A DNA stretch of 64,000 nucleotides from Thermodesulfobacteriota bacterium (GCA_965116735.1 OZ220712.1:3265680-3329679), one strand, 5' to 3'; positions 4,645 to 51,718 are shown, counted from the stretch's first letter. A program made the numbers and translations. The notes: a model not told the origin generated them from the sequence alone.

Positions 4645-4723
4645 AGAGAGTTGCGCCGCGGCGGGGGGCCAGGAGCCTGTCCGACGAGATAGTCTCGCGA
4701 ATCCTGACATGCCCTGCGGGCCG

Positions 4724-5263
4724 TCAGTTTTCCGGCTCGGCTATCTCGTCCATGTACGTCTTTCCGATATCCACCTTCTGAATCATCCGGGGTTCCGTCT
4801 CCCCGCCCTTCTTCGGCTTGTAGAGAGGCACCTTCTCGGTGATGAAGTGCCGCACAAGACCGGCGGGGTTGTTGCACGCGCCCTCGAACTCCTGCGTGTG
4901 ACGGATGGATCCCGTGGGGCAGGCCTCCATGCAGAGCCCGCAATACATGCACTTGCAGATGTCGATGTCGAACAGCGTGAAGTCGCGCTGCTTGGTCTCG
5001 GCGTTCATCTCGATGCCGATGGCGATGCAGTTGATGGGGCACACCCGCTCGCACGCCAGGCAGCCCGTGCAGATGTCCATGTCGACCTCTAGGATGCCGC
5101 GGTAGCGGAGCGGCAGGGTCTCCTGCACCTGCGTGGCGATGCGGTCGGGGTACTGGACGGTCGACGGCTTGCGGACGAAGTGGGAGAACGTGATGGTCAT
5201 CCCCTCGAAGATGCTCCGCACCGTGTCCCTGACGTTCTGACAGTATTCGATGATTCCGTTCAT
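4724..5263 (-). CDS. nuoI: NADH-quinone oxidoreductase subunit I (2x[4Fe-4S] ferredoxin)
   Basis: Two CxxCxxCxxxCP motifs (CTGCLACERVCP, CMYCGLCMEACP); 179 aa; in operon position. Confidence 0.9.
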   Translation of the reverse strand: MNGIIEYCQNVRDTVRSIFEGMTITFSHFVRKPSTVQYPDRIATQVQETLPLRYRGILEVDMDICTGCLACERVCPINCIAIGIEMNAETKQRDFTLFDIDICKCMYCGLCMEACPTGSIRHTQEFEGACNNPAGLVRHFITEKVPLYKPKKGGETEPRMIQKVDIGKTYMDEIAEPEN

Positions 5264-5297
5264 GGCGTTTCCCCGTGCCGCTTGTCGGTCGTTTCCC

Positions 5298-6503
5298 CTA
5301 CACGTACGGCTTGAGATAGAGGGTGGGGCGCGAGTGCATGATCTGGTAGACCACCCGCCAGATGAAATAAAGCACGACGAGGCACGACACCGCCAGCGTG
5401 GCCATGGTCAGGGCGAAGTTTCCTTCGGGCCAGATCACCAGCAGCACGATGGTGCCGAACAGGCAGATGAACGACATGGGCACCATGTACTTCCAGCACA
5501 TGGCCATGAGCTGGTCCACCCGCACGCGCGGCAGGGTGCCGCGCACCCACATGGCGACGAAGGCCCAGAAGTAGGCCTTGACGAAGAACACCGCGAACTC
5601 CAGCACGCCCTTGAGCAGCGGGTGCTCGGCCATGGTGACGCCGAAGATCGTCGCCGGTATCTGCCAGCCGCCGAGGAACAGCGTCGCCGCGATGGCGCCG
5701 ATGACGTACAGGTTGCCCCACTCCGCGAAGAAGAAGAACAGGAAGCGCATGCCGCTGTACTCGGTCACGTAGCCGGCCACCAGCTCGGACTCGGCCTCCG
5801 GAATGTCGAACGGCGTGCGGTTTCCCTCGGCCAGCGCCGCGGTGAAGAACAGGAAGAAGGCCACCAGCGTGAAGGGGTTGTAGAAGATGAACCAGTCCCA
5901 CGGCGCCCATCCCTGGGCCTTGATGATGCCCTGCATGCTGAGGGTCCCGGACAGGAAGATCACGGTCAGCACCGCCACCCCGGCGGGTATCTCGTAGCTG
6001 ACGATCTGGGCGGCCGAGCGCATGCCCCCCAGCAGCGACCACTTGTTGTTGGACGACCAGCCCGCCATCAGGATTCCCACCACCACCAGGGAGGTAATGG
6101 CCAGCAGGTAGAGGATGCCGATGTTCAAGTCGGCGGGTATCAGCCAGCTTCCGAAGGGAATGACGACGAAGGCGCCGAGGAACCCCGAGAAGACGATATA
6201 AGGCGCCAGGAGGAACAGCTTCCTGTCGGCCGACGCCGGGATGATGTCCTCTTTCTGGATGTTCTTGACCCCGTCCGCCAGCCACTGAAGAATTCCCTGC
6301 GGGCCTACCCGGTTGGGGCCCACCCGGGACTGCATGCGCGCCCACACGCGCCGCTCGAGCCAGCTCGTCACGCCTGCCAGCGGCGCCACGAAGAACGACA
6401 GCACGGCGAAGGCCACCGCCACCGCCGCCAGGGCATAGCCCAAGGCCGCCGGGACGGCACCCGGCAACAACGTCGCGATCAGGTCTTGTACGGTAAAGTC
6501 CAT
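5298..6503 (-). CDS. nuoH: NADH-quinone oxidoreductase subunit H
   Basis: 401-aa polytopic membrane protein, NuoH/ND1-like, in operon position. Confidence 0.9.
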   Translation of the reverse strand: MDFTVQDLIATLLPGAVPAALGYALAAVAVAFAVLSFFVAPLAGVTSWLERRVWARMQSRVGPNRVGPQGILQWLADGVKNIQKEDIIPASADRKLFLLAPYIVFSGFLGAFVVIPFGSWLIPADLNIGILYLLAITSLVVVGILMAGWSSNNKWSLLGGMRSAAQIVSYEIPAGVAVLTVIFLSGTLSMQGIIKAQGWAPWDWFIFYNPFTLVAFFLFFTAALAEGNRTPFDIPEAESELVAGYVTEYSGMRFLFFFFAEWGNLYVIGAIAATLFLGGWQIPATIFGVTMAEHPLLKGVLEFAVFFVKAYFWAFVAMWVRGTLPRVRVDQLMAMCWKYMVPMSFICLFGTIVLLVIWPEGNFALTMATLAVSCLVVLYFIWRVVYQIMHSRPTLYLKPYV

Positions 6504-6521
6504 CTACACTGCCTATCGTGC

Positions 6522-7658
6522 CTATCGGTCGATCTCGGGGGCGTCCACGTCGAGGCTCGCGATCAGCGCGATGAGATCCGCGACCATGATGCCCGGGCTG
6601 ATCTTGTCGATGATGCTCATGGCGGTGAACGAGCCGGTGCGGATCCTCACCCGGTAGGGGTACTCGCTGCCGTCGCTGACCACGTAGTAACCCATGTCGC
6701 CGCGCGGCGCCTCGATGCGCACGTAGGTCTCGCCGGCGGGCGGCTTGAACTTGCGCGCCACCTTGGCGACGGCCGGGCCGTCGGGCATCTTGTCGAGGCA
6801 CTGGCGCAGGATCTTGCAGCTCTCCATCAGCTCGCGGATGCGCACGTAATAACGGTCGTAGGAGTCGCCGAGGGTCCCGCGCTCGCCGCGACCCACAGGC
6901 ACCTCGAAGTCGAGATCGGGATAGACCGAGTAGGGGATGTCCCGTCGGATGTCCCACTGGACGCCGGAGGCCCGCAGGTTGGGACCCACGAGGTTGTACT
7001 GGAGCGCGTCCTCCTTGGAGATCACCGCGACGTTGGCCAGCCGCTCGATGAAGATCTTGTTGTACGAAAGGAGCCGGTTGTACTCGTCGACGATGGGCTC
7101 GAAATGGTCCAGGAACGCGGTGATCCGCGCACAGGTTTCGGGCTTGATGTCGTAGCCGACGCCGCCGATCCGCAGGTAGTTGTAGGTGAGGCGGGCGCCG
7201 CAGATCTCCTCCATCAGGTCGTTGATGCTCTCCCGCTCCCGAAGCGCGTGCAGGAAGGGGGTGATGGCGCCGATGTCCTGCCCGAAGGTGCCCACCGCGA
7301 TCAGGTGGCTGGCGACGCGGTTCAACTCGCAGGCGATCACCCGGCAGTATTCGCCCCGCGGCGGCACCTCGACGTTGCCAAGCCGCTCCGCCGCCATGCA
7401 GAAGCCCTGGTTGGCGAACATGGCGGCGAGGTAGTCGGCGCGGTCGGTGTAGGGGACGTAGCCGTGCCACGTGCACTTCTCGCCGATCTTCTCGATGGAG
7501 CGGTGCAGGTAGCCGACGTCGGGGATGGCCTCGTTGATGACCTCGCCGTCGGTCTTGACCACGAACCGCAGCACCCCATGGGTGCTCGGATGCTGCGGCC
7601 CCACGTTCAGGGTCATGTCTTCGGTGTGCAGGCCGGTGCGTTCGGCAACCTCAGCCAT
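6522..7658 (-). CDS. nuoD: NADH-quinone oxidoreductase subunit D (49 kDa)
   Basis: [31 protein letters not shown]... is the canonical NuoD N-terminus; 378 aa. Confidence 0.9.
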
Positions 7659-7689
7659 GATGTCCTTCCTTCGTCAACGACCCGGACGC

Positions 7690-7714
7690 GGGCGGGTTTG
7701 AAACCCGCCCCTAC
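7690..7714. repeat. REP-like palindrome gggcgggtttgaaacccgcccctac
   Basis: Exact 25-mer in the nuoD-nuoC gap. Confidence 0.8.
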
Positions 7715-7745
7715 AATTCGACCGCGGCACTCTGCCGCGACCCGT

Positions 7746-8252
7746 CTAGCGCATGTTCTCCGGGACCAGCGGCTCGCGCTCGGTGCTGATGCCGTCGTAC
7801 TCTTCCTGCTCCACGAAGTCCTTGCGCAGGGGATAGCCCACCCAGTCCTCGGGCAGCAGGATGCGCCGCAGGTCCGAATGCCCTTCGAAGACGACCCCGA
7901 AGAGATCGAACACTTCGCGCTCGAACCAGTTGGCCACCTTCCAGACGTCCTCGACCGTGGCGATCCGCGAAGCGTCCCGGTCCACGTCGGCCTTGAACAC
8001 GATCTGTTGCGGGGGCTCGTAGGAGTACAGATGGTAGACCACCTGGATGACGTTCTCGACGGGAAGATCCACCGCGGTCAGGTCGGAAAGCACGCTGAAC
8101 TTGAGCGCTCCGTCGTCCCGCAACGCCAGGCACACTTCCTTGAGGTTGGCCGCGTTGACCTTGAAGAACGGGTCCAGACACTCTTCATCGAGGTCGGTGG
8201 CGGCGCCGGGGCAAAGCTCGTTCACGCGCTCGAATATCTCTTTTGCCGTCAT
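7746..8252 (-). CDS. nuoC: NADH-quinone oxidoreductase subunit C (30 kDa)
   Basis: 168 aa, NuoC-like (…FDLFGVVFEGHSDLRRILLPEDWVGYPLRKD); directly follows nuoA with only 44 bp between them, so no nuoB. Confidence 0.85.
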   Translation of the reverse strand: MTAKEIFERVNELCPGAATDLDEECLDPFFKVNAANLKEVCLALRDDGALKFSVLSDLTAVDLPVENVIQVVYHLYSYEPPQQIVFKADVDRDASRIATVEDVWKVANWFEREVFDLFGVVFEGHSDLRRILLPEDWVGYPLRKDFVEQEEYDGISTEREPLVPENMR

Positions 8253-8295
8253 GTCGTCGTTACCTGCCTGGTGGCCCGACCGTCGCAGCCGTCGC

Positions 8296-8673
8296 CTAGC
8301 TCTTCACCCACTCCAGGTCGCCCTTGCACCAGTCGTAGATGAGGCCAAGGAACACGATGAGGGTGAAGACGGCGATGGCGCCGAACGCGAACAGTCCGGC
8401 GTCGTTCTGAAGCCAGTCGCGGAACACCACCGCCACCGGGAAGATGAAGGCGATCTCCACCTCGAAGATGATGAAGATCAGGGCGATGAAGTAGAACCGG
8501 ACGTTGAAGTTGACCCACGCGCTCCCGGAGGCCGGCTCGCCGCACTCGTAGGTGGAGAGCTTGCGGAGCTGGGGGTTGGAAGGCCGCAGCAGGCGGCCGA
8601 TCAACAGGTTCACCCAGACGAAGGCCGCACCCAACAACGTGAATACCAGCACGCTGGCGAAGTCAAAAAGCAT
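8296..8673 (-). CDS. nuoA: NADH-quinone oxidoreductase subunit A
   Basis: 125-aa three-TM protein with the conserved YECGE motif; AT-rich promoter region upstream (8680-8810). Confidence 0.85.
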   Translation of the reverse strand: MLFDFASVLVFTLLGAAFVWVNLLIGRLLRPSNPQLRKLSTYECGEPASGSAWVNFNVRFYFIALIFIIFEVEIAFIFPVAVVFRDWLQNDAGLFAFGAIAVFTLIVFLGLIYDWCKGDLEWVKS

Positions 8674-8875
8674 GGTTCCTCGGGTAAGATAAAGAAATCA
8701 ATAACCTTTTGCAGTCGGTCCCTATATACACACAAAAGCCGTTGCCGGTCAACAAACCGGCCCGCGCTGCCCGCCCCGGCATCCTTACACTGCCCAACCA
8801 TTCCTGTTACCTTATCCCGTGCTTGGCGTCGACCGGCACGACACGGGAAAGATCAAACCGGGAGAGATCAAACGC

Positions 8876-9868
8876 ATGGCAAGAGTGAGCATCACCGTCG
8901 CCTGTTGGGACTATGACCGGACGCGCCCCTTGCAGGAGGGCCGCGTGCCGGTGGAGGGGGTCGACCTGACCTACCTGCCGTTCCGCGTGGAGGAAACCTT
9001 CTGGCGCATGCTGCGCTACCAGGACTTCGACGCCGCCGAGATGTCCATGGGCTCCTACATGATGTCGCGGGACAAGGGCACGCCGCGGTTCGTGGCGATC
9101 CCGGTATTTCCCTCCCGCGCGTTCCGGCACTCCGGCATCTACATCCATACCGGCTCGGGCATCAAGGAAGCCGCCGACCTCACCGGCAAGCGGGTGGGCG
9201 TCCCCGAGTACCAGATGACGGCGGCCATCTGGCAACGCGGCATCCTGCAGCACGAGTACGGCGTCGATCTCGAGAAGGTGAACTGGTTCACCGGCGGCGA
9301 AGAGACGCCCGGACGGGAGGAAAAGCTCCGTCCCGACCTGCCCGAGACCCTCTCCATCACTCCCATCGGCCCGGGCCAGACCCTCTCCTCCATGCTGGAG
9401 AACGGCGACATCGACGCCCTGATCTCGGCCCACATGCCGTCGCCGTTCGTGCGCCGCTCGCCCAAGGTTGGGCGGCTGTTCCCGGACTTCCGCTCGGTGG
9501 AGGAAGACTACTTCCGCAAGACGGGCATCTTCCCGATCATGCACACCGTCGTCTTCCGGGAAGACGTGTACGAGCGCCACCCATGGGTGGCACAGAACCT
9601 CTACAAGGCCTTCTGCGAGTCCAAGCGCCTCTGCGCCGAGGCCATGTACGAATATTCGGCGCTCAAGTACATGCTGGCCTGGTCCATCGAGCAGATGGAG
9701 AAGGAGAAAGAGGTCCTGGGACCCGATGCCTGGGCCTACGGACTGGAGCCCAACCGCCATGTCCTGGAGACGCTGGTGGGCTACGCCCACGAGCAGGGCC
9801 TCACCAAGCAGCGGCTCGAGGTGGATAGCCTGTTCGCGCCGAGCACGCTGAACGAGTTCAAGGTGTAG
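8876..9868 (+). CDS. NMT1/THI5-like protein (4,5-dihydroxyphthalate decarboxylase-like family)
   Basis: MARVSITVACWDYDRTRPLQEGRVPVEGVDL...GIFPIMHTVVFRE pattern typical of this family; start moved to internal ATG at 8876. Confidence 0.55.
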   Translation: MARVSITVACWDYDRTRPLQEGRVPVEGVDLTYLPFRVEETFWRMLRYQDFDAAEMSMGSYMMSRDKGTPRFVAIPVFPSRAFRHSGIYIHTGSGIKEAADLTGKRVGVPEYQMTAAIWQRGILQHEYGVDLEKVNWFTGGEETPGREEKLRPDLPETLSITPIGPGQTLSSMLENGDIDALISAHMPSPFVRRSPKVGRLFPDFRSVEEDYFRKTGIFPIMHTVVFREDVYERHPWVAQNLYKAFCESKRLCAEAMYEYSALKYMLAWSIEQMEKEKEVLGPDAWAYGLEPNRHVLETLVGYAHEQGLTKQRLEVDSLFAPSTLNEFKV

Positions 9869-9908
9869 GGGACCCCGGCTCCAAGGTTGTAGGGGCGGGA
9901 GGCAACGC

Positions 9909-10256
9909 TCACCTTTCGGTATGGAGGGCTACGCTAGATTTGTTGCCGCGCGTCTCTCTCTCGAATGGTGCAACCTCGATCTCGCCCGCCCGCCCGCGGG
10001 TCTTGGCGATGTCGTAACTGTTCTGCATACGCATGAGGGTGTCCATCGACACGCCGAATGCCTTCTCAATTCGCAACGCCATCTCCGGCGACAAGCGCGC
10101 TCGCTCGTTCAGGACGGCCGACAGCGCCGCCCGCGTGACGCCCAGCGCCTTCGCCGCCCGAGTCACCGTCAGATCAAGAGCCTCGATGATCTCGTGTTTC
10201 ACGAACTCGCCAGGATGGACGGGGCTCTTCATTCGGAAGCCGTGTACCGGTTTCAT
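9909..10256 (-). CDS. higA: HigA-family antitoxin (XRE-type HTH)
   Basis: HTH core LTVTRAAKALGVTRAALSAVLNERARLSPEMALRIEKAF; 10 bp downstream of higB with GAGAGG RBS. Confidence 0.7.
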   Translation of the reverse strand: MKPVHGFRMKSPVHPGEFVKHEIIEALDLTVTRAAKALGVTRAALSAVLNERARLSPEMALRIEKAFGVSMDTLMRMQNSYDIAKTRGRAGEIEVAPFERETRGNKSSVALHTER

Positions 10257-10265
10257 GTCTACCTC

Positions 10266-10556
10266 TCAGTGATAATCCTCGTAGTTGAGGTCGACGATCT
10301 CCATCCCGTCCCGATCGATCCAGAACGCGAGCCGCCAGTTCGCGGTAACGGCCAGACTCCAGATGCCCCTGCGATCCCCGCTCAGCCTGTGTGCCCTCCA
10401 ACCCGGCACGGTCCGCAACTCTTCCTCCCGTTCCATGTCCTGGAGGAAAGAAACGATGCGCCGGAGCTTCGGAGCAAATGCGGGCTGTACTCCGGCGGCA
10501 TCATCTTCCTCAATGAGCCGACGCAGCCCCCTGTGGACCACGTTCCTGATTTTCAT
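10266..10556 (-). CDS. higB: HigB-family toxin (RelE/ParE superfamily)
   Basis: C-terminus ...WSLAVTANWRLAFWIDRDGMEIVDLNYEDYH matches the HigB signature ending LNYEDYH; start set at internal Met (MKIRNVVHRGL). Confidence 0.7.
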   Translation of the reverse strand: MKIRNVVHRGLRRLIEEDDAAGVQPAFAPKLRRIVSFLQDMEREEELRTVPGWRAHRLSGDRRGIWSLAVTANWRLAFWIDRDGMEIVDLNYEDYH

Positions 10557-10840
10557 CCCCCATGTTAGCTGGTACGGCCGTATAGTGTCAAGATACACTT
10601 TCCATCACGCTCGTTACGCGACTACCCTGCCGTGGCTGAGGTGGTCCTGGTTTGTCGGACAGGAAGGCGGCAGAAATAAGGTTTATTCTAAAGTTATCGA
10701 GCATGCCGCGAAGGTCCTGTTTAACCGGCACCCGCCGCATGTGTTATATTCTATTGGATTGGGCACCGTGGGTGCCGGATGGTGCTGGGGTATTGAAGCT
10801 GAACGATGCCCGGGGCGCCGAAAACTGTTCCAAGGACGCC

Positions 10841-11431
10841 ATGTCCGACCCCGAGAAACCCGACGTCGAAGCCCCCGCCACGGAAACAAGGGATTCCGTC
10901 GGCGAGCCGGACGCCTCCGTCCAGGAGGTGAAGTGGTGGATCGACACCGGAACCAAGCGCCAGCCGGAATCCGGTGAACGGGCCCCCATCGGCGTGATCG
11001 AGCGCTGGGCCTTCGAGCTGCTGAAGGACTACCGGCAGGAGCGGGCGCTCCAGAACATCGTCGACATCAACGGCCAAGTCCTGCGGCAGCTCTCCGACAA
11101 CGAGGACCGCTGGGTGTACGTCTCCCTGGGCGTCGGCGAGTTCCCCCAGAAACGCCTCAACTACATCAAGGATGCGCTGAGGATACCGCGCTACGCCCGC
11201 GCCCTGGCCATCGACGCCGGCTACTCCGTCCGCATCCTCATCACCGGCAACCCCCCGGGCGAGAAGGTCCTGGACATCAACTTCACCGAGGCGCCGTCCC
11301 TGGACTACTGGACCAACGGCGAGCTCATCGAGGAGCAGATGTTCCGCTCCATCGACGACGCCCTCAAGCGCCTGCGGAACTCGGTTCACCGGTACCTGCG
11401 CAAGAGCGCGCCCGAGGAGACGCCCGCGTAA
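10841..11431 (+). CDS. hypothetical protein (upstream partner of tandem AAA ATPase)
   Basis: 196 aa from ATG at 10841 (MSDPEKPDVEAPAT...); no motif recognised; AT-rich upstream region with inverted repeat ggcaccgtgggtgcc. Confidence 0.5.
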   Translation: MSDPEKPDVEAPATETRDSVGEPDASVQEVKWWIDTGTKRQPESGERAPIGVIERWAFELLKDYRQERALQNIVDINGQVLRQLSDNEDRWVYVSLGVGEFPQKRLNYIKDALRIPRYARALAIDAGYSVRILITGNPPGEKVLDINFTEAPSLDYWTNGELIEEQMFRSIDDALKRLRNSVHRYLRKSAPEETPA

Positions 11432-11649
11432 CGGCCGCCCGTAACGCGCGCCGGTGTTCGCGCAGCCGTCCTCCAGAACCGCCATACTCCGAGCCGCTAA
11501 CCCCGCCGCGGTGTCGACACCACCTACGGGCGAGGACACCTGAAGACGCGTCAACACGAAAAGTCTGCATCCGGACAGCCACGTACGTCCGAATCTGACG
11601 CATGACATTATTAGAGTTCTCCCACGAGAGTCTCGAACAAGGGGATGTC

Positions 11650-13737
11650 ATGCCGTCCGCCTATGAACGCCGTCTCGTCCTTTTCTATCTGTCGAACGCT
11701 GTCTCGCGGCTCCGTGGCCGCGACGAGGAGGCGTCGCACTTGGTGCAGTGGCTCCGGCAACATGAGGAGGAGCTGCGGTTTCGCTACCCGACAAGGCCGG
11801 ACGACATCGCCGAAGGAGCGATACAACACGGTTTGCGAGACCGGGAAGTATCCACGCCGGAGTGGCAACGTTTAGGAGAGGTCCTGAGAAACGCCTGGGC
11901 GGCGGCAAGGCCCGCGCACCCTGACAGGACGGCGCGGCGCATTCGGCGCCTGGCAAAGCTCACGTGTCTTTCCCGGACCGACGCAGTAATCCTGGAACTG
12001 GCGCTGCGCCATCAAACGGGCTCCCTGGTCGGTTCGTTGATCGACGACATTGGCGAACGCACCCAATGGAATAGAAGAGGCTTCAGGCTGGGGAACCCCG
12101 TGCTCCCAAGCTTGCTTGGCCTTTCTGCCGGCACGGTCCACGGCCGGTTTGCGCCCGACGCCCCTCTCGTGAGTTCGGGACTATTGTCCATCGACGACGA
12201 CGGCGATGTGACGCTCCTCGACCGTTTGACCCGGCTGCACTGGCTTCCGAAGGAGGCCGGTTCCGACGTGCCGCGCCTGCTGCTGGACGAGGCCGGCCCC
12301 GGCGAGCTTTGCTGGACCGATTTCGACCACGTTGCCGGCGATCGCGATCATCTCGAACGGATTCTGAGCGGGGCGTTTCGATGCAACCAAAAAGGCGTCA
12401 ACGTCCTCGTCTACGGGCCGCCGGGGACCGGCAAGACCGAGTTCTGCAAGACCCTTGCCGCCCGCCTCGAAGCGCCGCTCTACGTGGTCGGCGAAACGGA
12501 TGCCAACGGTGGCGAGCCTACCCGAAGCGAGAGGATGCAGGAGTTGCGGCTCGCGCAACGCCTGCTAGCCGGAAACTGTCGATCCATCCTGCTCTTCGAT
12601 GAGATGGAGGACCTGCTCTCCTTGCAGGGAGGGTTGCTGGCGGGACTGTTCGGCTCGCGCCGTGTCCCCGCGCGTTCGGCCGAGGGCTCGAAGGTGTTCA
12701 TGAACCGCCTTCTGGAGCAGACTCCGGTACCGATCCTGTGGACGTCGAACGCTGCCCGGTGGACCAGTCCCGTTCTCTTGCGCCGAATGATGTTCGCCCT
12801 GGAACTGCGCCAACCCCCGCCCAAGGTCCGGGCGCGGATCTGGGCGCGGCACCTCGCCCACCATGGGATCGAGTCGACCGAGGAAGATGTCCATGCCCTG
12901 TCACGGGAGTTCGACGTAACGCCGGGCGTGGCCGCCGGGGTCACCGCCGCGGCCCGGCTCGGCAGCGGGACCCTGGCGGACGTGCGCCGCGGCGTGCGCG
13001 GACTGGCGCGGGTGCTGTCCGGCGACACGCCGCCAACTCAACGGACGCCGGGCAGGTACGATCCCGAGTTGATCCGCGCCGACGTGGACCTGATTCAACT
13101 CGCGGACTGCCTCGTCGAAAGCGGCGCGCGCCACTTCTCGCTATGCCTGCAAGGACCACCGGGAACCGGCAAGAGCGCATTCGCCCGGCACCTCGCCGAC
13201 CGGCTCGGGCTCGAAGTCATCCAGAAACGTGCCTCCGATCTCATGTCGATGTGGGTCGGGAGCACCGAAAGAAACATCGCCGAAGCCTTTGCCGAGGCCC
13301 GCGACGCCGAGGCATTCCTGGTCTTCGACGAAGCCGATTCACTGCTCGCCGACCGCCGCCTCGCCCACGGAAACTGGGAGGTGAGTCAAGTGAACGAGAT
13401 ACTGACCTGGATGGAAGGCCACCCGTTTCCCTTCGCCTGCACGACGAATTTCGGCGAACGCCTAGACCCGGCCACCCTGCGGCGGTTCACGTTCAAGGTC
13501 GCGCTCGACTATCTGTCGCCGGAGCAGGCAAGGGTAGCGTTCCGTGTCTACTTTGGGATCGAACCCCCAGCCGAGGCCGCTGGCCTAACCGCGCTGACTC
13601 CGGCCGACTACGCCGTCGTGCGCCGGAAGGCAGAGATCCTCCGTTGCCTGAGCGACACAGGAGCGCTCGCAGCAATGCTGCGGGCGGAAGGCCAGGCGAA
13701 GCCGGGGCGGCTGCAGGTGGTCGGATTTCGGACGTGA
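11650..13737 (+). CDS. tandem AAA+ ATPase (two classical-clade AAA modules after an unknown ~270-aa N-domain)
   Basis: Walker A VLVYGPPGTGKTEF and CLQGPPGTGKSAF; Walker B ILLFDEMED and FLVFDEADSL; AAA signature SDLMSMWVGSTERNIAEAFAEAR; arginine-finger-like LLRRM / ATLRRF; AGGGGA RBS before the ATG at 11650. Confidence 0.75.
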   Translation: MPSAYERRLVLFYLSNAVSRLRGRDEEASHLVQWLRQHEEELRFRYPTRPDDIAEGAIQHGLRDREVSTPEWQRLGEVLRNAWAAARPAHPDRTARRIRRLAKLTCLSRTDAVILELALRHQTGSLVGSLIDDIGERTQWNRRGFRLGNPVLPSLLGLSAGTVHGRFAPDAPLVSSGLLSIDDDGDVTLLDRLTRLHWLPKEAGSDVPRLLLDEAGPGELCWTDFDHVAGDRDHLERILSGAFRCNQKGVNVLVYGPPGTGKTEFCKTLAARLEAPLYVVGETDANGGEPTRSERMQELRLAQRLLAGNCRSILLFDEMEDLLSLQGGLLAGLFGSRRVPARSAEGSKVFMNRLLEQTPVPILWTSNAARWTSPVLLRRMMFALELRQPPPKVRARIWARHLAHHGIESTEEDVHALSREFDVTPGVAAGVTAAARLGSGTLADVRRGVRGLARVLSGDTPPTQRTPGRYDPELIRADVDLIQLADCLVESGARHFSLCLQGPPGTGKSAFARHLADRLGLEVIQKRASDLMSMWVGSTERNIAEAFAEARDAEAFLVFDEADSLLADRRLAHGNWEVSQVNEILTWMEGHPFPFACTTNFGERLDPATLRRFTFKVALDYLSPEQARVAFRVYFGIEPPAEAAGLTALTPADYAVVRRKAEILRCLSDTGALAAMLRAEGQAKPGRLQVVGFRT

Positions 13738-13949
13738 ACAACGAAACAATAAGGGAGATATGGGTTGTAAAGGAAAAAGTTTTCTTTTGTGCCAAAGATA
13801 ATAGATTGTGGTGACATCCGTGCTGTCACCTGGATCCCAGGCCGTAGGGCAGCATGGGGGAACAGGCCGGGCCACATCGCGTTGGGACTTGGCGAGGCCA
13901 GTGACGTTGCTTCAGAGCGCCTATCGAACCCACGAAGGAGGTGCAGGAC

Positions 13950-14537
13950 GTGTCCACCGCTTACGATCTACATTGGAAGTCGATCCCCATGCGACCAGTA
14001 CCGCGTGATTATTGGAATAACTGGTACCGGACCTACCTCGGCCGGGGCGTCTACCTCTGGGTGCTGGCTACCACCGATGGCAACTACGTGGGTTATTACG
14101 TTGGCAAGTCGGACGACATCGGTAGTCGTTGGTGGAAACATTTACATGATTTCCCGGGGTACTACCTACCTACAAACGTAAGGGCGTTCCTTGAGAATCC
14201 GGTAGCGGAGTTCAACAACAACGCCGTCGAGAGGGGTCTTCCTCAAAGGCGAAAAACCGTACAGACCATGTTGAACGACACTTGGTTCTGCTGGGCCGAA
14301 GTGACCTGTCGGCCATGGCACCGGACCGAGAACGTGGAGTACGTGTTGCAGGAAGGGCTCAAGATACACGCGGGGATCACAGTAGACGGGTATATCGGCG
14401 ATGCGGGCGCCCGTTATCCTCCGACTTCTGCACTCGCGATCCACAACCGCTTCGGACGGGACTTCCTGGTTCCTGTGCTTCCTGCGACGATCATCTTCAC
14501 GGTCGATGGCGGGGTACAACATATTGAGGTTGCGTAG
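13950..14537 (+). CDS. GIY-YIG nuclease-like domain protein
   Basis: GVYLWVLATTDGNYVGYYVGKSDDIGSRWWKHL fits the GIY..YIG..R..H pattern; AGGAGG RBS 9 nt before a GTG at 13950. Confidence 0.55.
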   Translation: MSTAYDLHWKSIPMRPVPRDYWNNWYRTYLGRGVYLWVLATTDGNYVGYYVGKSDDIGSRWWKHLHDFPGYYLPTNVRAFLENPVAEFNNNAVERGLPQRRKTVQTMLNDTWFCWAEVTCRPWHRTENVEYVLQEGLKIHAGITVDGYIGDAGARYPPTSALAIHNRFGRDFLVPVLPATIIFTVDGGVQHIEVA

Positions 14538-14671
14538 AAGGCACGCTGCTGCTGCAATGGCAAGGTAGAGACGTCGGGCCTACCGCCGCCGACGCGAAAT
14601 CCCTCGCCGGTGCAAATACTCGTACAAACGATCGGGAGCACCCGCAACAACGCGGCAAGCGGAGACATCCA

Positions 14672-14881
14672 GTGCGTCACGAACGCCTCATAGAACTCCT
14701 CCGCCTAGCCATCCGACTTCAAGGAAGCTCCGATGGCGTAACCCTCGTTGACATACAGGAAGAGTTCTCCGTTAGCCGACGTACTGCCGAGCGGATGCGG
14801 GATGCCGTCGAGGCCGCCTTCGGGCCATTGGAGACGGTTGAGACGGACACTGGCGACCGCCATATACATTGGCGGCTTTAG
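14672..14881 (+). pseudogene. truncated N-terminal wHTH of a WYL-type (BrxR/CapW/PafBC-like) regulator
   Basis: MRHERLIELLRLA...VSRRTAERMRDAVEAAFGP resembles HTH_11 of WYL regulators but ends after 69 aa with no WYL domain downstream. Confidence 0.45.
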
Positions 14882-15051
14882 CCGAACGTCCTCGCACAGC
14901 CGTTCGCACAACAACTGCTGCAGCGCACTTGCGTTGATAGGCATCACAGTAACCTCGGCTGATCTTCCGCAGCCGGTCATGCTGCGCGACTCAAACCTGA
15001 TCTAGAATCGACACTGGCTGGGACTAATATGGGCCTGTCCAGGCCACCGCC

Positions 15052-16161
15052 TCACCCCCCGGCGGCACCCCGCCGGATGGTGCCGGGGCGCATGGGGAAG
15101 GGGACGGAGCTGGTGATCTCCAGGCCGTAGCCGGACAGGCCGACGAGGTTTCTGGGGTTGTTGGTGACGAGCTTGAGCTTGCGGATGCCCAGGTCTCTGA
15201 GGATCTGGGCGCCGATGCCGAAGTCGCGGAAGCTCCTTTCCTCTCTGGCTTCCGCGGTGCGCAGGCCCTTGCCTTCGGGCTGGAGGTAGAGCAGCACGCC
15301 GGCGCCTTCCCGGGCGATGAGCTCCAGGGACTGCTTGATGACCGACCCGGTGTCGAAGAACTCGAAGCCGAAAACGTCGCCGGGAAGGAACTTGGTGCAC
15401 ACCCGCACCAAGGTCTCGCGGTCCTCGGAGATCTCTCCCTTGATGAGCGCCAGGTGCTCGCTGGAGTCCACGTGGGTGTTGTAGACCACGGCCTCGAACT
15501 CGCCGCCGTAGCGGGTGGGCAGCCGGGTGGTGGCGACCCGGTGGATCAGCGAGTCGTGCTTGAGGCGGTACTGGATCAGGTCCGCGATGGTGCAGATCTT
15601 GAGGTCGTACTTTTCACCGAACTCCTCCAGGTCCGGCAGCCGCGCCATGGTGCCGTCGTCCTTCATGATCTCGCAGATCACGCCGGCGGGCTTGAGCCCC
15701 GCGAGCCGGCACAGGTCCACGGAGCCCTCGGTCTGGCCCGTGCGCACCAGCACGCCGCCGTTGCGGGCGCGCAGCGGAAAGATGTGCCCGGGCGTACACA
15801 GATCGCCGGGGCCGGCGTCGTCGGCGATGGCGGCGAGGATGGTCTCGGCGCGGTCGGACGCCGAGATGCCGGTGGTGACGTTCTTGACGCCGTCGATGGA
15901 AACGGTGAACGCGGTGCCGAAGGGCGCGGTGTTGTCCCGCACCATCATGGTGAGGCCGAGCTCGGCGACCTTCTCCTCGGTGAGGGGCAGGCAGATCAGA
16001 CCCCTTCCCCAGGTGGCCATGAAATTGATGGCCTCCGGCGTGACCAGTTCCGCCGCCATGGTGAGGTCGCCCTCGTTCTCGCGGTTCTGGTCATCCATCA
16101 GGATGACCATCCTGCCTTGGCGGATGTCTTCGAGGGCTTCTTCGATGGTGGCTACGGGCAT
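15052..16161 (-). CDS. ribBA: bifunctional DHBP synthase / GTP cyclohydrolase II-like protein (C-terminal domain apparently degenerate)
   Basis: N-terminal RibB domain well conserved (ENEGDL, ATWGRGLICLP); C-terminal RibA-like domain lacks the zinc-ligand cysteines (VRVCTKFLPGDVFGFEFFDTG instead of HSECLTGD...RCDCG). Confidence 0.75.
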   Translation of the reverse strand: MPVATIEEALEDIRQGRMVILMDDQNRENEGDLTMAAELVTPEAINFMATWGRGLICLPLTEEKVAELGLTMMVRDNTAPFGTAFTVSIDGVKNVTTGISASDRAETILAAIADDAGPGDLCTPGHIFPLRARNGGVLVRTGQTEGSVDLCRLAGLKPAGVICEIMKDDGTMARLPDLEEFGEKYDLKICTIADLIQYRLKHDSLIHRVATTRLPTRYGGEFEAVVYNTHVDSSEHLALIKGEISEDRETLVRVCTKFLPGDVFGFEFFDTGSVIKQSLELIAREGAGVLLYLQPEGKGLRTAEAREERSFRDFGIGAQILRDLGIRKLKLVTNNPRNLVGLSGYGLEITSSVPFPMRPGTIRRGAAGG

Positions 16162-26811: not shown

Positions 26812-27161
26812 GGCTTGACTTTCGGGCCGATCACCTTGCGGAGTTCCCCTGTCATGGCCGAGTGACTCAGATCGCCCGCTCCCCTGCGGGCGATGATCAC
26901 CGTATCCTGGTCGGGGCGGAAATTGTCGCGCCCGCGACGAAAGAACTCGCGGAGCCTCCGCTTCACCCGGTTGCGCACCACCGCGTTCCCGACCTTGGAG
27001 CTGACCGTGACCCCGAGCCGTTTGCCCCGATGATCGTTGTCTCTGCGGATAATGATGAAGTGCGGGGTGTAGAGCTTCCTGCCCCTACGGGACAGCAACA
27101 GGAACTCGGAACGTCTCGTCAGGCGGGCTTCCCTGGGGAAACTCTCGCGCACACCGGACAA
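26808..27161 (-). CDS. rnpA: ribonuclease P protein component
   Basis: 117 aa basic protein, RnpA motif region [26 protein letters not shown]; 4-bp overlap with yidD. Confidence 0.85.
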
Positions 27162-27171
27162 CGGCTGGTTC

Positions 27172-27333
27172 CTAGGTGCGAGGACCCTTCGGTGGGATGA
27201 CGACGGTCAACCGTTTCCTTCCCTTGGCCCTCCGCCGCTTCAGCACATTGCGACCGCCCGGGGTCTCCATTCGCGCGAAGAAACCGTGGGTTCTCTTTCG
27301 CCTAAGATTGCTCGGTTGATACGTCCGTTTCAT
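27172..27333 (-). CDS. rpmH: 50S ribosomal protein L34
   Basis: Not in ORF track (under 60 aa); minus-strand translation [53 protein letters not shown] is a canonical L34 with a short C-terminal extension. Confidence 0.8.
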
Positions 27334-27532
27334 TTCCGCACCTTCATTCTTAAGTCACATCTTTCAAGCATACGCGGGGTGGCTTGTCAATTTGTCGAAG
27401 GCAACGCGCGAACCAGGAAAGGAAGGGCTCAAGTTTGGCCGACAAAGGCCGATGAAAGAATCAGGGCAGTTCCAAACAGCCCCGCTGGTCTGACGAGGAA
27501 AGCCACCGACCGGAAGAAACAGGAGCCGGCTG

Positions 27533-45515: not shown

Positions 45516-45940
45516 GTCAGCTTCCGGCCCAAAACCTTCTCCGCCATCTGCTGCGCAAGCGCCTCGGCATTGGTCGAGGCCACTTGGCGCGCCGCCTCCA
45601 TCTCCTTCTGGACCTCTTCCCGGATCTCCTGGATCTTTTGGGTGGCGGCGTCACGCCCCTGGGAGAGGATCACGTTGCGGGCCTTGAGGGCCTCTTCCCG
45701 GATCTCGCTCTTGATGGCTTCCCCTTCGGCGCGCGCCTTGGCGATGGCGGCGTCGTACTGCTCCTGCAACTCTTTTCCTTCCTCGGTCATCGAGCGTGCT
45801 TCCGCGTGGGCGCCCTCGGTGCGGCGCTCCCGTTCCGCCATCAAACGCCCGACCGGCCCGAACAGCACCCGGCGCAGGATGCTGAAAAGGATCAGGAACA
45901 GGACGATTTGGACGACCAGAGAAAAGTCTATGCTGATCAT
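45512..45940 (-). CDS. F1Fo ATP synthase subunit b'
   Basis: 142 aa second b-type subunit with the same architecture; 4-bp overlap with atpF. Confidence 0.75.
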   Translation of the reverse strand: MISIDFSLVVQIVLFLILFSILRRVLFGPVGRLMAERERRTEGAHAEARSMTEEGKELQEQYDAAIAKARAEGEAIKSEIREEALKARNVILSQGRDAATQKIQEIREEVQKEMEAARQVASTNAEALAQQMAEKVLGRKLT

Positions 45941-46291
45941 GCTTCGCGTTCGTTGCTGAAGACACCGGACTCGGACGGCGAGCCCCGGTCAAGGAAGATA
46001 CGGAGTGGCGTGAACCTAGATGTCGTCAGTAGCCTCTATAAACCTCGTTTCCTTCCCCGCGCTTGCTCGGTGACGCCCGCCGTGTAGACGGAACGACGCT
46101 CCCGGAAAGGGAAAACCTCGATAGTCTGCCCGGTTGTTCCACGAAAACGCGGACTTATCGCACCGCACCGGATGAGTCTGCTTGCAGTCTGAGGAAAGGC
46201 AAACCTCTTTCAACTGCCGACCACGGACGGTCTATAGCACTCGCACCTTTACTTGTCAAAGAGAGCCAGTGTAAACCAGCGGTCTGCGTCG

Positions 46292-47383
46292 TTACGCAGC
46301 GAAATCGCGTAAATGACAAGCGGGACCAAACCTCTCGACGTTCCATCCTGAATCCGAATCAATCCGGCGTCGCAGCCGGACCGAACCAGTCAATATCGGT
46401 TGCTGTCGAAGTCGGACCTTGGATTCGCGTATTGTCCGATCGACCGTCCGATCTCTACGCTTCCCAGACTGCTTGGCAAGCCCGGCCTTTGATGTGGCGA
46501 AGGCATTTGGCGTTTGATTGAGAATACGGTCCACATCTCTCTTGGTCGGCAGGACCCTACCTCCTTTGCACCAAGGCGTCAGCACCGCGTACGGGTTAGG
46601 TTCCAACATAGTTCTCCAAACGCCAGCTTCATCGGCATTCTCTGACCCGTGGTGCGGCACCTTAAATACGGATGCTCTACCACTCGGTCGCTCGCGACTC
46701 TGCAGAATCTCGACCCAAGCACCCTTCTCCGAGTCTGAACCAAGAAGCAACTCCGTACCACCTACACTTATCCACAGCACGACAGCAACATCATTGGGGG
46801 ACACACTCGGAACCCGTGTCTTCGTGCTACCTGCGTTGGGGAACAAGGCACCAATTGATCTAAGAGAGTTACTGAATTCCGCGCTTCCAGGAGACAAGGA
46901 CCAAACCCGGCACCTTCCGCGGGAATAAATGCGCATGTTGGCCAGAGCGAACGTTGGTTGAGCGGCCCTGGATTGGAGTTGGGTGAGCACGGCATGAATC
47001 TCTCGAACACCGGAGCCGTCTATCGCGACGTCACGTCGCCCCCAGGCACCAACGGCGGTGAGAAATTCCTTGTCGCGTAATGCGGCAGCGCAACAGAAAA
47101 CGGCCTCTTTGCAAACCTCAACCACCCTTGACATCCCGCGTATGTGATCATCGTGCCAATGGGTAGCGACTACTAGGCCGACGGCCTGCGAGGGGTCTAC
47201 ACCGAGACTCCGCAAGTAACCTAACGCTCGTGGGTAGCCATCGCGGTCGATACAGGAGTCAACAATGACCCAGTTGCCATCGCCGATATGAAGAACCACG
47301 CTCTCCCCATACCCGGGGCCAACGAGTGTAACCTCTAGCTCGTCTCGGTCCGGCTGCGTACCGACGCTTGCAGACTCTGTCAC
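46292..47383 (-). CDS. metallo-beta-lactamase-fold protein (ComEC-like MBL: HxHxDH and PHHGS motifs)
   Basis: ATHWHDDHIRG and KVPHHGSENAD motifs; proposed GTG start forms a GTGA overlap with the upstream gene's stop. Confidence 0.65.
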   Translation of the reverse strand: MTESASVGTQPDRDELEVTLVGPGYGESVVLHIGDGNWVIVDSCIDRDGYPRALGYLRSLGVDPSQAVGLVVATHWHDDHIRGMSRVVEVCKEAVFCCAAALRDKEFLTAVGAWGRRDVAIDGSGVREIHAVLTQLQSRAAQPTFALANMRIYSRGRCRVWSLSPGSAEFSNSLRSIGALFPNAGSTKTRVPSVSPNDVAVVLWISVGGTELLLGSDSEKGAWVEILQSRERPSGRASVFKVPHHGSENADEAGVWRTMLEPNPYAVLTPWCKGGRVLPTKRDVDRILNQTPNAFATSKAGLAKQSGKRRDRTVDRTIRESKVRLRQQPILTGSVRLRRRIDSDSGWNVERFGPACHLRDFAA

Positions 47384-47979
47384 TCGTCGAAGACCGCCCT
47401 GGTCTTCCGCGCCCACTCCTCGGCCTCCTGAACGTCTTTCTTTGTGAAAGCGGGAAGGTCGCGGAATACGATACGAGAAACCCGTTCCTTCGTGCCCACA
47501 ACCGAACGGCTGTATCCGATGACCCAACGAAAGACGCTTCCAAGTTGCAACTTGGCCACATCGGTCTCCGATAGCTCTTCCAAGGGTATTACTGCTTCTT
47601 CCCCTGCATAGGCCGCCCCTGCCGTCACGTCTAGGAGATTAGCGGTGATGTCCTCGTCTCTAATCTCAGTGACATAGCCTTCCCACTCCTGGATCGCGTA
47701 GAGGGTCGGAGAAGGGTTCTGGGGTGGTCGTGGAGGTAAGAGTTCGACGACCTTGGCAAGTTGTGGGTCGCTCTGTTCACTACCGGTTAACGGAGACAAA
47801 TCTGCCGCTTCCATCTGGGGGTAGCGGGCCCTCGTTGTCGCAACGTCCCTCCCCTGGGCCAATACTGCGCCAACAGTCTCGTCCATGTTCTTGACGAGGT
47901 CTTCGATTGTCGCGTCGCGATCAAGACTACCGACATCGTCGACCGCCCTCGCCGTAGTCAGTTGAGCCGTCTGTGGCAC
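47380..47979 (-). CDS. hypothetical protein (acidic, 199 aa)
   Basis: Middle gene of a three-gene minus-strand cassette; no recognisable motif. Confidence 0.5.
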   Translation of the reverse strand: MPQTAQLTTARAVDDVGSLDRDATIEDLVKNMDETVGAVLAQGRDVATTRARYPQMEAADLSPLTGSEQSDPQLAKVVELLPPRPPQNPSPTLYAIQEWEGYVTEIRDEDITANLLDVTAGAAYAGEEAVIPLEELSETDVAKLQLGSVFRWVIGYSRSVVGTKERVSRIVFRDLPAFTKKDVQEAEEWARKTRAVFDE

Positions 47980-47995
47980 CTATCTATACCTCCCT

Positions 47996-48685
47996 CTAAT
48001 CTGCCAAAGCCATGACGTGATCAATCAGATCCTCACTTCGCTTCAACGAAGCTTCGAAGTTGTCCTCTAGTAAACCAATCAAATGCGCCGCAGAGTTCGG
48101 GCTGTCGTTGTCGCTGGCATAGTGATCATTGACAGCCACATAGACCCCTGTGCGCCCCTCGCCAATCCGCGTGGACGGCTCCACCTTGACATTAATGCTA
48201 CCACCCTTTGGCCTTCCTTGGGGATCGATTTGCGACATCGTGAGTGACGTCATGCCTCCTTGCATTCCGTCCAAGCCGAGAGCTTCCCTCCAATCACCCC
48301 AAGGTTCCACGGGAGCTAAGGTCCTACCTATCTTATCTCTAACGCTTAAACCCTGTACTTGGAAATGAACCTCTCGGTTGATCCCGAACCCCGTAAGGGG
48401 CGTGTTAGGTAGAATTTCGTTGAACACGCGCGAGCTTAGATCTCGCAGCCGAATGTAGGGTGCCTGTAAAGTCTCGCACTTGAACCGTTCTGTCGTCACG
48501 TCGACACGGAGCCAATCAACGGAGAATACGGTGAGCCCTTGGTGGGCTACCTGCAACTGTGCAACCACTTCCGCACCCTTCGGCAAGAGGTCGTGCAACG
48601 TAAACCAAGCCGGGGTGAATATCGCTGGGTTAAACTTACCCACCAGGATGATGTTCACACCGCTTATCTCTGGCGTTATGCGCAT
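47996..48685 (-). CDS. hypothetical protein (~229 aa)
   Basis: First gene of the cassette (MRITPEISGVNIILVGKFNPAIF...); no recognisable motif; lower GC than the core genes. Confidence 0.5.
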   Translation of the reverse strand: MRITPEISGVNIILVGKFNPAIFTPAWFTLHDLLPKGAEVVAQLQVAHQGLTVFSVDWLRVDVTTERFKCETLQAPYIRLRDLSSRVFNEILPNTPLTGFGINREVHFQVQGLSVRDKIGRTLAPVEPWGDWREALGLDGMQGGMTSLTMSQIDPQGRPKGGSINVKVEPSTRIGEGRTGVYVAVNDHYASDNDSPNSAAHLIGLLEDNFEASLKRSEDLIDHVMALAD

Positions 48686-48841
48686 ATGGCCCATCCAACT
48701 TGGTCGCAACCGCAGCTAACCAATCGTAACCGTTATCTGTGACTTCGCGAAACTGGTTCCATATCACACCCGTTACCGCAGCGTCGAGAACGCGCAAACA
48801 ACTTTTAAAAAGAAATCGATGGGCAAGGAGAGAACACCCTA

Positions 48842-51622: not shown

Positions 51623-51702
51623 AAGTCTTTTATTTTCAATAAGTTATAGAACGGGCGCCGTTACTGTTTCTTAGCATTTCCGAACACGGAAAGGAAGGCC
51701 AA

Positions 51703-51718
51703 TGTTTCACGTGAAACA
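51703..51718. promoter_or_regulatory. parS centromere-like site (perfect tgtttcacgtgaaaca)
   Basis: Exact match to the 16-bp palindromic parS consensus, ~80 bp upstream of parA. Confidence 0.7.

Follow-up and report, generated by a model that had tools for sequence, protein, structure and literature searches.

Two insertions around a native gene in a Thermodesulfobacteriota genome: a higBA module and a probable decaying copy of a mobile, DriD-box-headed ATPase operon

DriD of Caulobacter crescentus is a regulator activated by single-stranded DNA (ssDNA), and its binding site, activation and promoter geometry have been described (PMC9186387; PMC10853764; PMC13004042). Its domain order is wHTH-3HB-WYL-WCX (PDB 8TP8, 9PFQ), and it activates a DNA-damage response that is independent of SOS. 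The protein recognizes the consensus ATACGAC-N7-GTCGTAT, with the core CGNC-N7-GNCG, and reads this operator through the arginines R37 and R41 (PMC10853764); at the didA promoter, where the site is ATACGTCCGTTTCTGGCGCA (PMC9186387), DriD occupies the place of the -35 element and recruits RNA polymerase (PMC13004042). DriD appears conserved in Alphaproteobacteria, and what it does directly in repair is described as yet to be established (PMC7617703). The WYL-domain repressors BrxR and CapW fall in a cluster of the published phylogeny separate from that of DriD (PMC12392091), and CapW is likewise a sensor of ssDNA (PMC11662680). The open literature searched yielded no account in which a DriD-type or any other WYL regulator has a tandem AAA+ ATPase as its partner, and none of a DriD-box operon bearing defence candidates. 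Such a pairing is described here from a stretch of 64,000 nt from a Thermodesulfobacteriota bacterium (GCA_965116735.1 OZ220712.1:3265680-3329679; the window), in which positions 9909-15050 hold a HigBA toxin-antitoxin pair, a tandem AAA+ ATPase gene, a gene for a weakly GIY-YIG-like protein and the remnant of a DriD-like regulator gene.

As a whole, this region is fairly probably explained by two independent insertions, one of higBA and the other of a copy of a mobile, DriD-box-headed ATPase operon present in several phyla. A sequence-only reading of the same DNA had instead proposed a single accessory block inserted between an NMT1-like gene and ribBA, a view that the gene order of relatives overturns. 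The window was assigned to the Binatia lineage by searching one genome per species with RibBA as the query, and its surroundings were compared with those in eight relatives (L001-L009), of which L001 and L002 are the closest contigs; L174, a 1.1-Mb Binatia contig with an ATPase that shares 81% identity with that of the window, and L081 are further related contigs with the cassette. In all eight relatives the NMT1-like gene, a 196-aa gene and ribBA follow one another in this order only tens of bases apart, and HigA, HigB, the ATPase, the 195-aa gene and the helix-turn-helix (HTH) gene are all absent from the site. Since the 196-aa gene lies directly between NMT1-like and ribBA in these genomes (43-77% identity, the highest value being that of L001) and has a core-like GC content at third codon positions (GC3), it splits the region into two separate horizontal insertions, one on either side. 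Nucleotide alignment places the breakpoints at 9869/10833 and about 11405-11434/15048. At the first site, only 22-44 bp separate the NMT1 stop from the next gene start in L001 and L174, whereas the window alignment breaks at 9869-9872 and resumes at 10833; at the second, the 196-aa gene and ribBA of L001 stand about 20-40 bp apart. That higBA and the ATPase cassette arrived in independent events follows from L081 and L174, both of which carry the ATPase at the window's site without higBA.

Composition agrees with this division. The five foreign genes have GC3 values of 0.63-0.78, below the 0.88-0.94 of core genes; codon usage thus sets apart every gene of the proposed block except the 196-aa gene (0.924), and the horizontal acquisition of the others is supported. 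The uneven GC content of the region, already remarked upon in the sequence-only reading, was confirmed (0.54 to 0.70 in 500-bp windows across 9909-15050), and coding density, counted from gene coordinates, is approximately 80%. Neither a tRNA gene (in the whole window), nor an integrase or transposase domain (in the island open reading frames, ORFs, by Pfam and NCBIfam-type family scans), nor an Rfam family at E <= 0.1 (in 8-17 kb), nor an intrinsic terminator (within the island) was found. The slot between the 196-aa gene and ribBA is a recurrent landing site for toxin-antitoxin and defence-type cargo, because L002 holds there a RES-domain toxin with an Xre/MbcA/ParS antitoxin (L002 11119-12125) and part of the same antitoxin gene persists in L174, behind the WYL gene.

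The second insertion comprises, in order, a DriD-type operator with a -10 element, the tandem AAA+ ATPase gene, the gene for the 195-aa protein and the truncated WYL regulator gene. An intact cassette is present at the same site in L174, where the ATPase is followed by a 198-aa GIY-like homologue and a 331-aa regulator with WYL and WCX domains. A second intact copy, with an ATPase gene, a 197-aa gene and a 334-aa regulator gene, resides in an unrelated chromosomal context on a 4.7-Mb contig (L181); its similarity to L174 starts at the operator and stops at the regulator stop codon. In the window, by contrast with L174, the regulator gene is destroyed: TAG stands in place of CAG (Gln70) at codon 70, and everything from about codon 80 onwards is lost. 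The alignment of the two runs through the first 70 codons of the regulator and resumes only at ribBA, the window lacking 1.69 kb of L174 (11220-12908) and carrying 157 unrelated bases instead. The earlier proposal that the 69-aa product is the remnant of a WYL-type regulator is thereby upheld, this product being 81% identical to residues 1-69 of the intact L174 orthologue, 72-74% identical to the same stretch of the complete 331/337-aa WYL regulators of L082/L086 and matched by the PADLOC WYL model at 1e-7. It keeps the recognition helix and lacks the sensor and dimerisation domains. Given that the same truncated arrangement recurs in two more assemblies, L180, where the gene content is the same, and L179, which shares 100% identity with the window over 12.6 kb, an artefact of a single assembly is argued against, although the assemblies may stem from the same sample. 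The cassette is probably no longer inducible and decaying in this genome unless a second DriD homologue is encoded elsewhere; there is none in the 64 kb. Against L174, the ratio of nonsynonymous to synonymous substitution is 0.25 in the ATPase gene and 0.49 in the gene for the 195-aa protein; this comparison, which cannot isolate the window lineage, shows no obvious decay of these two ORFs.

Two further observations concern the ends of these cassettes. The 157-bp tail was considered as the 3' end of the regulator gene or as a remnant of the RES-Xre pair; nothing of either was detectable, and a likeness to a regulator C-terminus perceived by eye is too weak to claim. In the intact copies, an element of approximately 200 bp resembling a miniature inverted-repeat transposable element, with inverted ends GCAGGTTGTTGGAAACTCC ... 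GGAGTCTTTCAACAACCT, is found at 7775-7975 and 12003-12120 of L174, inserted between the -10 hexamer and the ATPase start codon and again after the WYL stop codon, and at about 700-750, 2060-2115 and 4454-4593 of L181.

The tandem AAA gene named in the sequence-only reading is present, at 11650-13737, with Pfam AAA matched twice, but it had been paired in that reading with an unknown gene. That gene is the core 196-aa gene, and the conserved partner of the ATPase is the WYL regulator, which accompanies it in about 27 of 32 non-redundant loci. The loci (80 metagenomic and 6 viral) were retrieved with an alignment of 12 family members, their neighbours were mapped by tblastn, and those counted each contain a full-length ATPase gene and at least 1.2 kb of downstream sequence. 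The regulator gene follows within 250 bp on the same strand in 18 loci, is separated from the ATPase gene by 0.7-2.2 kb of other genes in eight, lies just upstream in one and is missing in four or five; the pairing holds down to about 40% ATPase identity. AAA relatives without a WYL gene, which are approximately 45% identical over the C-terminal two thirds only and stand beside a carbonic anhydrase gene, were set aside, as they look like a different chromosomal subfamily. The pair is encountered in mobile contexts, namely beside TrwC relaxases and integrases (L082, L175), on a conjugative Leisingera plasmid, on an IMG/VR contig and in a PHROG family.

The ATPase-regulator pair also occurs in larger company. 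In alphaproteobacterial loci (L117, L126, L129, L131-L135, L140, L159 and L166) and in L178, the Leisingera plasmid pBMJM1_5, it stands with AddAB-like genes encoding a UvrD-type helicase of approximately 1050 aa and a PD-(D/E)XK nuclease of approximately 860 aa, together with a metallophosphoesterase or an ADP-ribosylglycohydrolase-phosphatase fusion, in two orientations and once on a conjugative plasmid; this arrangement may be a larger form of the system.

The partner is a DriD-family regulator. When the intact L174 protein was compared with all PDB sequences, it matched Caulobacter crescentus DriD at E 3e-53 over residues 1-317, with PafC reaching only 5e-4 and no BrxR or CapW entry appearing at E <= 0.01, and the BrxR/CapW affinity previously suggested for the remnant must accordingly be given up. 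Its recognition helix, RRTAERMRDAV, is identical to that of DriD, and the window remnant reads VSRRTAERMRDAV at this place, with R37 and R41. The regulators of L174, L181, L082 and L086 have WYL and WCX domains and align with DriD to residue 317, their ssDNA-contacting KPRxW residues being kept in intact orthologues, while the three-helix bundle, WYL and WCX are all missing in the window.

The cognate DNA site is present as well. Upstream of the window ATPase, GTACGTCCGAATCTGACGCAT constitutes the sole match at >=13/16 in the 64 kb, and in 31 of 38 non-redundant upstream regions a box of this type precedes the ATPase start by 35-52 nt, compared with 1.4% of random windows. The bare core CGNC-N7-GNCG was tried as a search pattern and discarded, as it is far too frequent in GC-rich DNA and only the extended consensus is specific. 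Most of 33 distinct upstream regions have a TAnnnT hexamer at a constant distance after the box, and the succession of box, 8 nt and hexamer equals the spacing of the didA promoter as printed (PMC13004042). Searches before the regulator genes revealed no DriD box, and because neither an operator nor a strong promoter precedes these genes, co-transcription from the DriD-box promoter is suggested. The simplest reading of the layout would be one transcription unit of box, ATPase, optional cargo and regulator under DriD-type control. In two loci (L095 and L177, the latter the Azospirillum brasilense replicon NZ_CP059450), the ATPase gene has a DriD-type box and no WYL gene in the 6-8 kb fetched downstream, which suggests control in trans by a regulator encoded elsewhere.

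The ATPase itself (100% identical to database protein P0001) is matched over its full length by phrog_10401 (2e-67), twice by Pfam AAA (E 3e-32) and by p97/Cdc48 (1e-26). The sequence reads Walker A motifs GPPGTGKT and GPPGTGKS, Walker B motifs LLFDEMED and LVFDEADS, and the second region of homology (SRH); D1 is without an aromatic pore loop, and D2 has the pore loop MWVG, which resembles that of p97. The N-domain of 250 residues was modelled as helical (predicted local distance difference test, pLDDT, 79), with a small element weakly resembling a winged helix, and its model gave no significant structural match. The family is large, with 2816 matches at E <= 1e-10; among the top 120, identity never falls below 57% and lengths range over about 690-725 aa, and those that bear a name are called only "AAA family ATPase".

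Far less constant is what accompanies the pair. Cargo located between the ATPase and regulator genes, or just after the regulator gene, is unrelated between lineages: the GIY-like protein is encoded in the window, L174 and L181, and after the regulator in L090/L107, whereas other loci carry a 259-aa family without annotation; a PDDEXK_4 protein with a 200-aa ORF, jointly PADLOC PDC-S26 (2e-22 and 3e-7); a 354-aa protein matching PDC-S11 (4e-14); a 353-aa protein weakly matching PDDEXK_4/PDC-S26; or a 341-aa protein with weak Mrr_cat and PDC-S02 matches. For the 195-aa protein of the window, a gene does exist where a GIY-YIG nuclease-like protein had been announced, but the Pfam GIY-YIG match amounts to only E 0.055 (14.2 bits, under the cut-off of 22.6). 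Its family numbers 22 proteins, one of which bears the NCBI name "GIY-YIG nuclease family protein", and 17 of 19 members match Pfam GIY-YIG below threshold (best 2.8e-4). The best PDB match of the family profile is the I-TevI catalytic domain, at a weak E of 0.068 and aligned on YIG..R..H. Residues G33-x-Y35, Y50-V-G52, R60, H64, E117/E130 and N166 are invariant or nearly so and fit the GIY...YIG...R...H...E...N series, while an AlphaFold2 model (pLDDT 88) found no Foldseek match in the PDB. The protein is therefore regarded as a candidate divergent GIY-YIG nuclease and not assigned as a member.

The surroundings of the pair point to a defence-rich setting. Among 150 ORFs within 4.5 kb of the pair in non-redundant loci, 108 PADLOC families were matched at E <= 1e-5, as opposed to 36 for a control of equal size, the 150 ORFs of which surround ribBA in other genomes; PADLOC-DB v2 was scored here at the level of protein models. 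The former include HerA (5e-280), a DRT reverse transcriptase (2e-140), ShosA, DrmD, type II restriction enzymes and the PDC candidates PDC-S01, PDC-S26, PDC-S42 and PDC-S48. The control families are mostly housekeeping look-alikes (dCTPase models, methyltransferases and MotB), the dCTPase matches being probably the riboflavin-operon deaminase. The defence-island character claimed for the window itself is accordingly borne out in part: homologous cassettes contain PADLOC candidates and have defence-rich surroundings, but no complete PADLOC-DB v2 system is found in the window, which offers only a partial IetA-type AAA-domain match and a generic WYL match. Beyond HigBA, the region contains no recognised defence system.

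By analogy with DriD, a working scheme may be proposed for an operon made up of a DriD-type operator over the -35 position, a Cdc48-like tandem AAA+ ATPase, optional cargo and a DriD-family wHTH-WYL-WCX regulator (wHTH, winged HTH). In intact copies, the DriD-like dimer would be activated by ssDNA, whether this arises from DNA damage or from the replication of a phage or plasmid, and would then bind the box and bring RNA polymerase to a promoter without a -35 element. Transcription of the ATPase gene, any cargo gene and the regulator gene would follow; the ATPase would presumably unfold proteins, the cargo would presumably supply a nuclease-type effector, and the whole may serve against phages or in a response to damage. 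The window copy, for its part, should show little expression and no induction, unless the genome encodes another DriD homologue.

What such an operon is for can be answered only tentatively. One possibility, put forward with caution, is that the ATPase and the DriD-like regulator form an undescribed mobile, ssDNA-triggered platform for interchangeable nuclease-type effectors (GIY-YIG-like, PD-(D/E)XK as in PDC-S26 and PDC-S11, and Mrr-like), that is, a modular anti-phage or anti-plasmid system. If so, a DNA-damage activator, not a repressor, would arm the effectors, a Cdc48-like unfoldase would be the constant component, and DriD-type regulation would reach well beyond Alphaproteobacteria, spread by mobile elements.

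Several points weigh against the preferred explanation of the region as a whole. The operator could mediate activation or repression, activation being the assumed mode. The GIY-YIG assignment reaches none of the curated thresholds, and no solved structure of similar fold is retrieved by Foldseek; most loci, moreover, have no cargo between ATPase and regulator, so that a nuclease is not an obligatory part. No window protein matches a validated defence system, the ATPase scoring 97 bits on IteA where the cut-off is 510, and the neighbourhood comparison is qualitative and crude, with rough ORF calls, one control set and summary output. An integrase, terminal repeats and target duplications were not found at the insertions. 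The cassette could still be under the control of a second DriD homologue encoded outside the 64 kb that the check covered. Finally, Caulobacter DriD controls repair and cell-division genes, and the module may thus be part of a DNA-damage response.

This last point leads to an alternative that is itself doubtful yet deserves a hearing, namely that the operon is a DNA-damage response or repair module and not an anti-phage one, in which the unfoldase would remove stalled or cross-linked proteins from DNA or remodel repair complexes while the nuclease-like genes and AddAB-like neighbours process DNA ends. DriD, the closest characterised relative of the regulator, governs a damage response separate from SOS, with recA, recJ, dnaG and the nuclease gene bapE in its regulon; the alphaproteobacterial and Leisingera loci adjoin AddAB-like helicase/nuclease genes and those of a metallophosphoesterase or ADP-ribosylglycohydrolase; most loci lack any cargo gene; and the possible winged helix in the ATPase N-domain, though weak, would be in keeping with such a role. 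Against a repair function stand the mobility and patchiness of the module and its foreign composition in the window, the PADLOC defence candidates in its variable slot, the defence-specific families in its neighbourhoods, and the decay seen in this genome, which would not be expected of housekeeping repair. Of the two, the defence-type reading is slightly preferred to repair, given that the module is mobile, that its nuclease-like cargo is exchangeable and that its neighbourhoods have the content described.

The variability of the slot lends itself to a different account, in which ATPase and regulator are the conserved flanks of a cargo hotspot on a mobile element, like those of P2/P4-type elements, the cargo being autonomous single-gene defence and the ATPase serving the biology of the element itself, such as damage-induced activation or transfer. 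The cargo is indeed different in every lineage and of unrelated families, several cargo genes match single-gene PADLOC candidates (PDC-S26, PDC-S11 and PDC-S02), insertion occurs either between the two genes or after the regulator, and relaxase or integrase genes (L082, L175) or a conjugative plasmid adjoin the pair. The cassettes of the window, L174 and L181, however, stand alone, free of other mobile-element genes and with similarity that ends exactly at the box and at the regulator stop, and the regulator genes have no separate operator or strong promoter, which suggests co-transcription; a hotspot is considered rather unlikely. Least credible by far is a one-event defence island spanning the whole 5 kb (HigBA, an "unknown + AAA" system, a GIY-YIG protein and a BrxR/CapW regulator), for although all genes lie within 5 kb of uneven composition and toxin-antitoxin modules and WYL regulators are common in defence islands, the 196-aa gene is core, L174 and L081 have the cassette without higBA, the regulator is DriD-like and no PADLOC system is present.

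Preference thus remains with two insertions, one of them a copy of the mobile DriD-box operon. For this genome the significance is modest, amounting to an ordinary HigBA module and a decaying cassette at a recurrent insertion site. More broadly, several phyla share a small mobile operon that unites a DriD-type regulator, the operator belonging to it and a Cdc48-like ATPase; genes for candidate defence nucleases are located within or beside this operon, and the tandem AAA+ ATPase constitutes a conserved, uncharacterised DriD target. WYL activators, in addition to the repressors BrxR and CapW, may link ssDNA sensing to defence-like cargo.

The coordinates of the features discussed are collected in Table 1.

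Table 1. Features of the two insertions and their flanks, in window coordinates (GC3, GC content at third codon positions).
Feature	Position	Strand	Remarks
NMT1/SsuA-like solute-binding protein gene	8876..9868	+	Core left flank; Pfam Phosphonate-bd / NMT1; GC3 0.912
Insertion 1	9870..10832		~0.96 kb; higBA and promoter region; GC 0.596
HigA antitoxin, Xre-type HTH, 115 aa	9909..10256	-	TIGR02607 antidote_HigA E 1.8e-29; Pfam HTH_3 4e-11; GC3 0.776
HigB toxin, RelE fold, 96 aa	10266..10556	-	Pfam HigB-like_toxin PF05015 E 2.2e-12, 47.7 bits vs cut-off 27; GC3 0.755
Sigma-70-like promoter TTGACA-18-TAACAT	10562..10591	-	10/12 consensus match only; 6 nt before higB ATG
196-aa core gene	10841..11431	+	True start ATG 10841; GC3 0.924; separates the insertions
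Insertion 2, DriD-box operon cassette with truncated regulator	11435..15048		~3.6 kb
DriD-type operator GTACGTCCGAATCTGACGCAT	11583..11603	+	Core CGNC-N7-GNCG, 21 bp; 46 nt before ATPase start
-10-like hexamer TAGAGT	11612..11617	+	8 nt after box; putative promoter element
Tandem AAA+ ATPase "AAA2", 695 aa	11650..13737	+	Helical N-domain, then D1, D2; GC3 0.779
Palindrome GGTGACA-N7-TGTCACC	13811..13831		ATPase/195-aa spacer, 215 bp, 53.5% GC; predicted fold -13 kcal/mol
195-aa cargo protein, weakly GIY-YIG-like	13950..14537	+	Candidate nuclease; GC3 0.667
DriD-like WYL regulator remnant, wHTH only	14672..14881	+	69 codons, then TAG
157-bp tail	14882..15038		Homologue-free in blastn and tblastx vs all fetched loci and window
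ribBA	15052..16161	-	Core right flank; Pfam DHBP_synthase and GTP_cyclohydro2; 92-93% identical in L001/L002; GC3 0.924

The first insertion appears, from its sequence, to be a complete and ordinary HigBA type II toxin-antitoxin module with its own promoter. Both members of the pair recognized in the sequence-only reading are present and above curated thresholds, HigA scoring 101.4 bits on the TIGR02607 equivalog (cut-off 47.7), and HigB does end in LNYEDYH; the gene call in L179 yields the same 96-aa product. On the minus strand, higB (10556-10266) lies upstream of higA (10256-9909) with 9 bp between them. The HigBA pair of L175 was examined as a possible copy of the same element and rejected, the proteins being only 36-44% identical. 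The higBA insertion showed no definable exact junction or target duplication. A half-copy, GTAGGGGCGGG, of a repeat resembling repetitive extragenic palindromic (REP) elements abuts its left edge at 9889-9899. This intergenic repeat, with GTAGGGGCGGG as its core, has nine copies in the window where 2.2 are expected (3905, 7704, 9889, 16241, 27078, 31494/31534, 40952 and 44899), and the core is the left arm of the hairpin GTAGGGGCGGGTTTCAAACCCGCCCC, which is whole in L081.

As for the flanks, the NMT1-like protein is 92-93% identical in L001/L002 and about 70% identical in six further relatives, and the 196-aa gene belongs to no family in Pfam, NCBIfam, PHROG or PADLOC. A promoter-like TTAACC-18-TATATT with TG is located at 10721-10750, upstream of the 196-aa gene and within inserted DNA. 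In L004, genes for two family III CoA-transferases and a UbiD-type decarboxylase occupy the slot that separates NMT1-like from the 196-aa gene (4658-8825), a metabolic cargo that is possibly linked in function to the binding protein.

Within the second insertion, the palindrome noted earlier at ~13.8 kb is present as described, but it carries no detectable signal. It is not conserved in the orthologous L174 spacer, and the window holds 116 perfect inverted repeats with 7-bp arms, compared with about 46 in shuffles. A role as an operator was rejected, the spacing being TGAC-N9-GTCA, unlike that of the DriD box, the sequence not conserved in L174 and such repeats not unusual in number. Elsewhere in the window, a large low-GC stretch at 45900-64000, where 500-bp windows fall to 0.46 at ~57.9 kb, against a mean of 0.64 for the 64 kb, and many ORFs lack a Pfam family, is probably another, larger accessory element; its genes encode a ParA-like ATPase (50840-51622), a subtilase (59478-60866), a metallo-beta-lactamase-fold protein and a SEC-C-motif protein. 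A short dip in GC to 0.54-0.58 is seen at 27000-27500, where the REP-like copy at 27078 has one mismatch.

Lastly, each component may be set against its nearest known counterpart. The window HigBA is routine: like other HigBA systems, it joins a HigB-like RelE-fold toxin to a HigA HTH antitoxin with the toxin gene first, and nothing notable distinguishes it. The likeness of the ATPase to IetA/IteA of the Ietas systems is confined to D2, which matches their models at 1e-27 (96.9 bits), whereas the tandem architecture and N-domain are different and the cassette contains no protease gene corresponding to the IetS protease/subtilase. Cdc48, p97 and VAT are closer in sharing two classical-clade AAA domains with Walker A/B motifs, the SRH and a D2 pore loop, yet the cassette ATPase has an unrelated helical N-domain without a fold match and no aromatic pore loop in D1. 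BrxR and CapW share with the cassette regulator the wHTH-WYL-WCX plan and a tie to defence genes; they are, however, encoded upstream of the systems they repress, while the cassette regulator is encoded downstream and its operator has the geometry of an activator site. The regulator is of the DriD-family kind in a new genomic setting and taxonomic range. With DriD it shares a full-length alignment (intact in L174), the recognition helix and the KPRxW residues, and the cassette operator combines the same core with nearly the didA sequence and the same distance to a -10-like hexamer. Caulobacter driD, by contrast, is chromosomal and divergent from a small ORF and a TonB-dependent transporter gene (an adjoining AAA ATPase gene was considered there and rejected), whereas the cassette regulator, of which only the first 69 codons survive in the window, occurs in Binatia, other Deltaproteobacteria-type metagenome-assembled genomes, Bryobacterales and Rhodospirillales as the last gene of a mobile, box-headed operon, paired with a tandem AAA+ ATPase.

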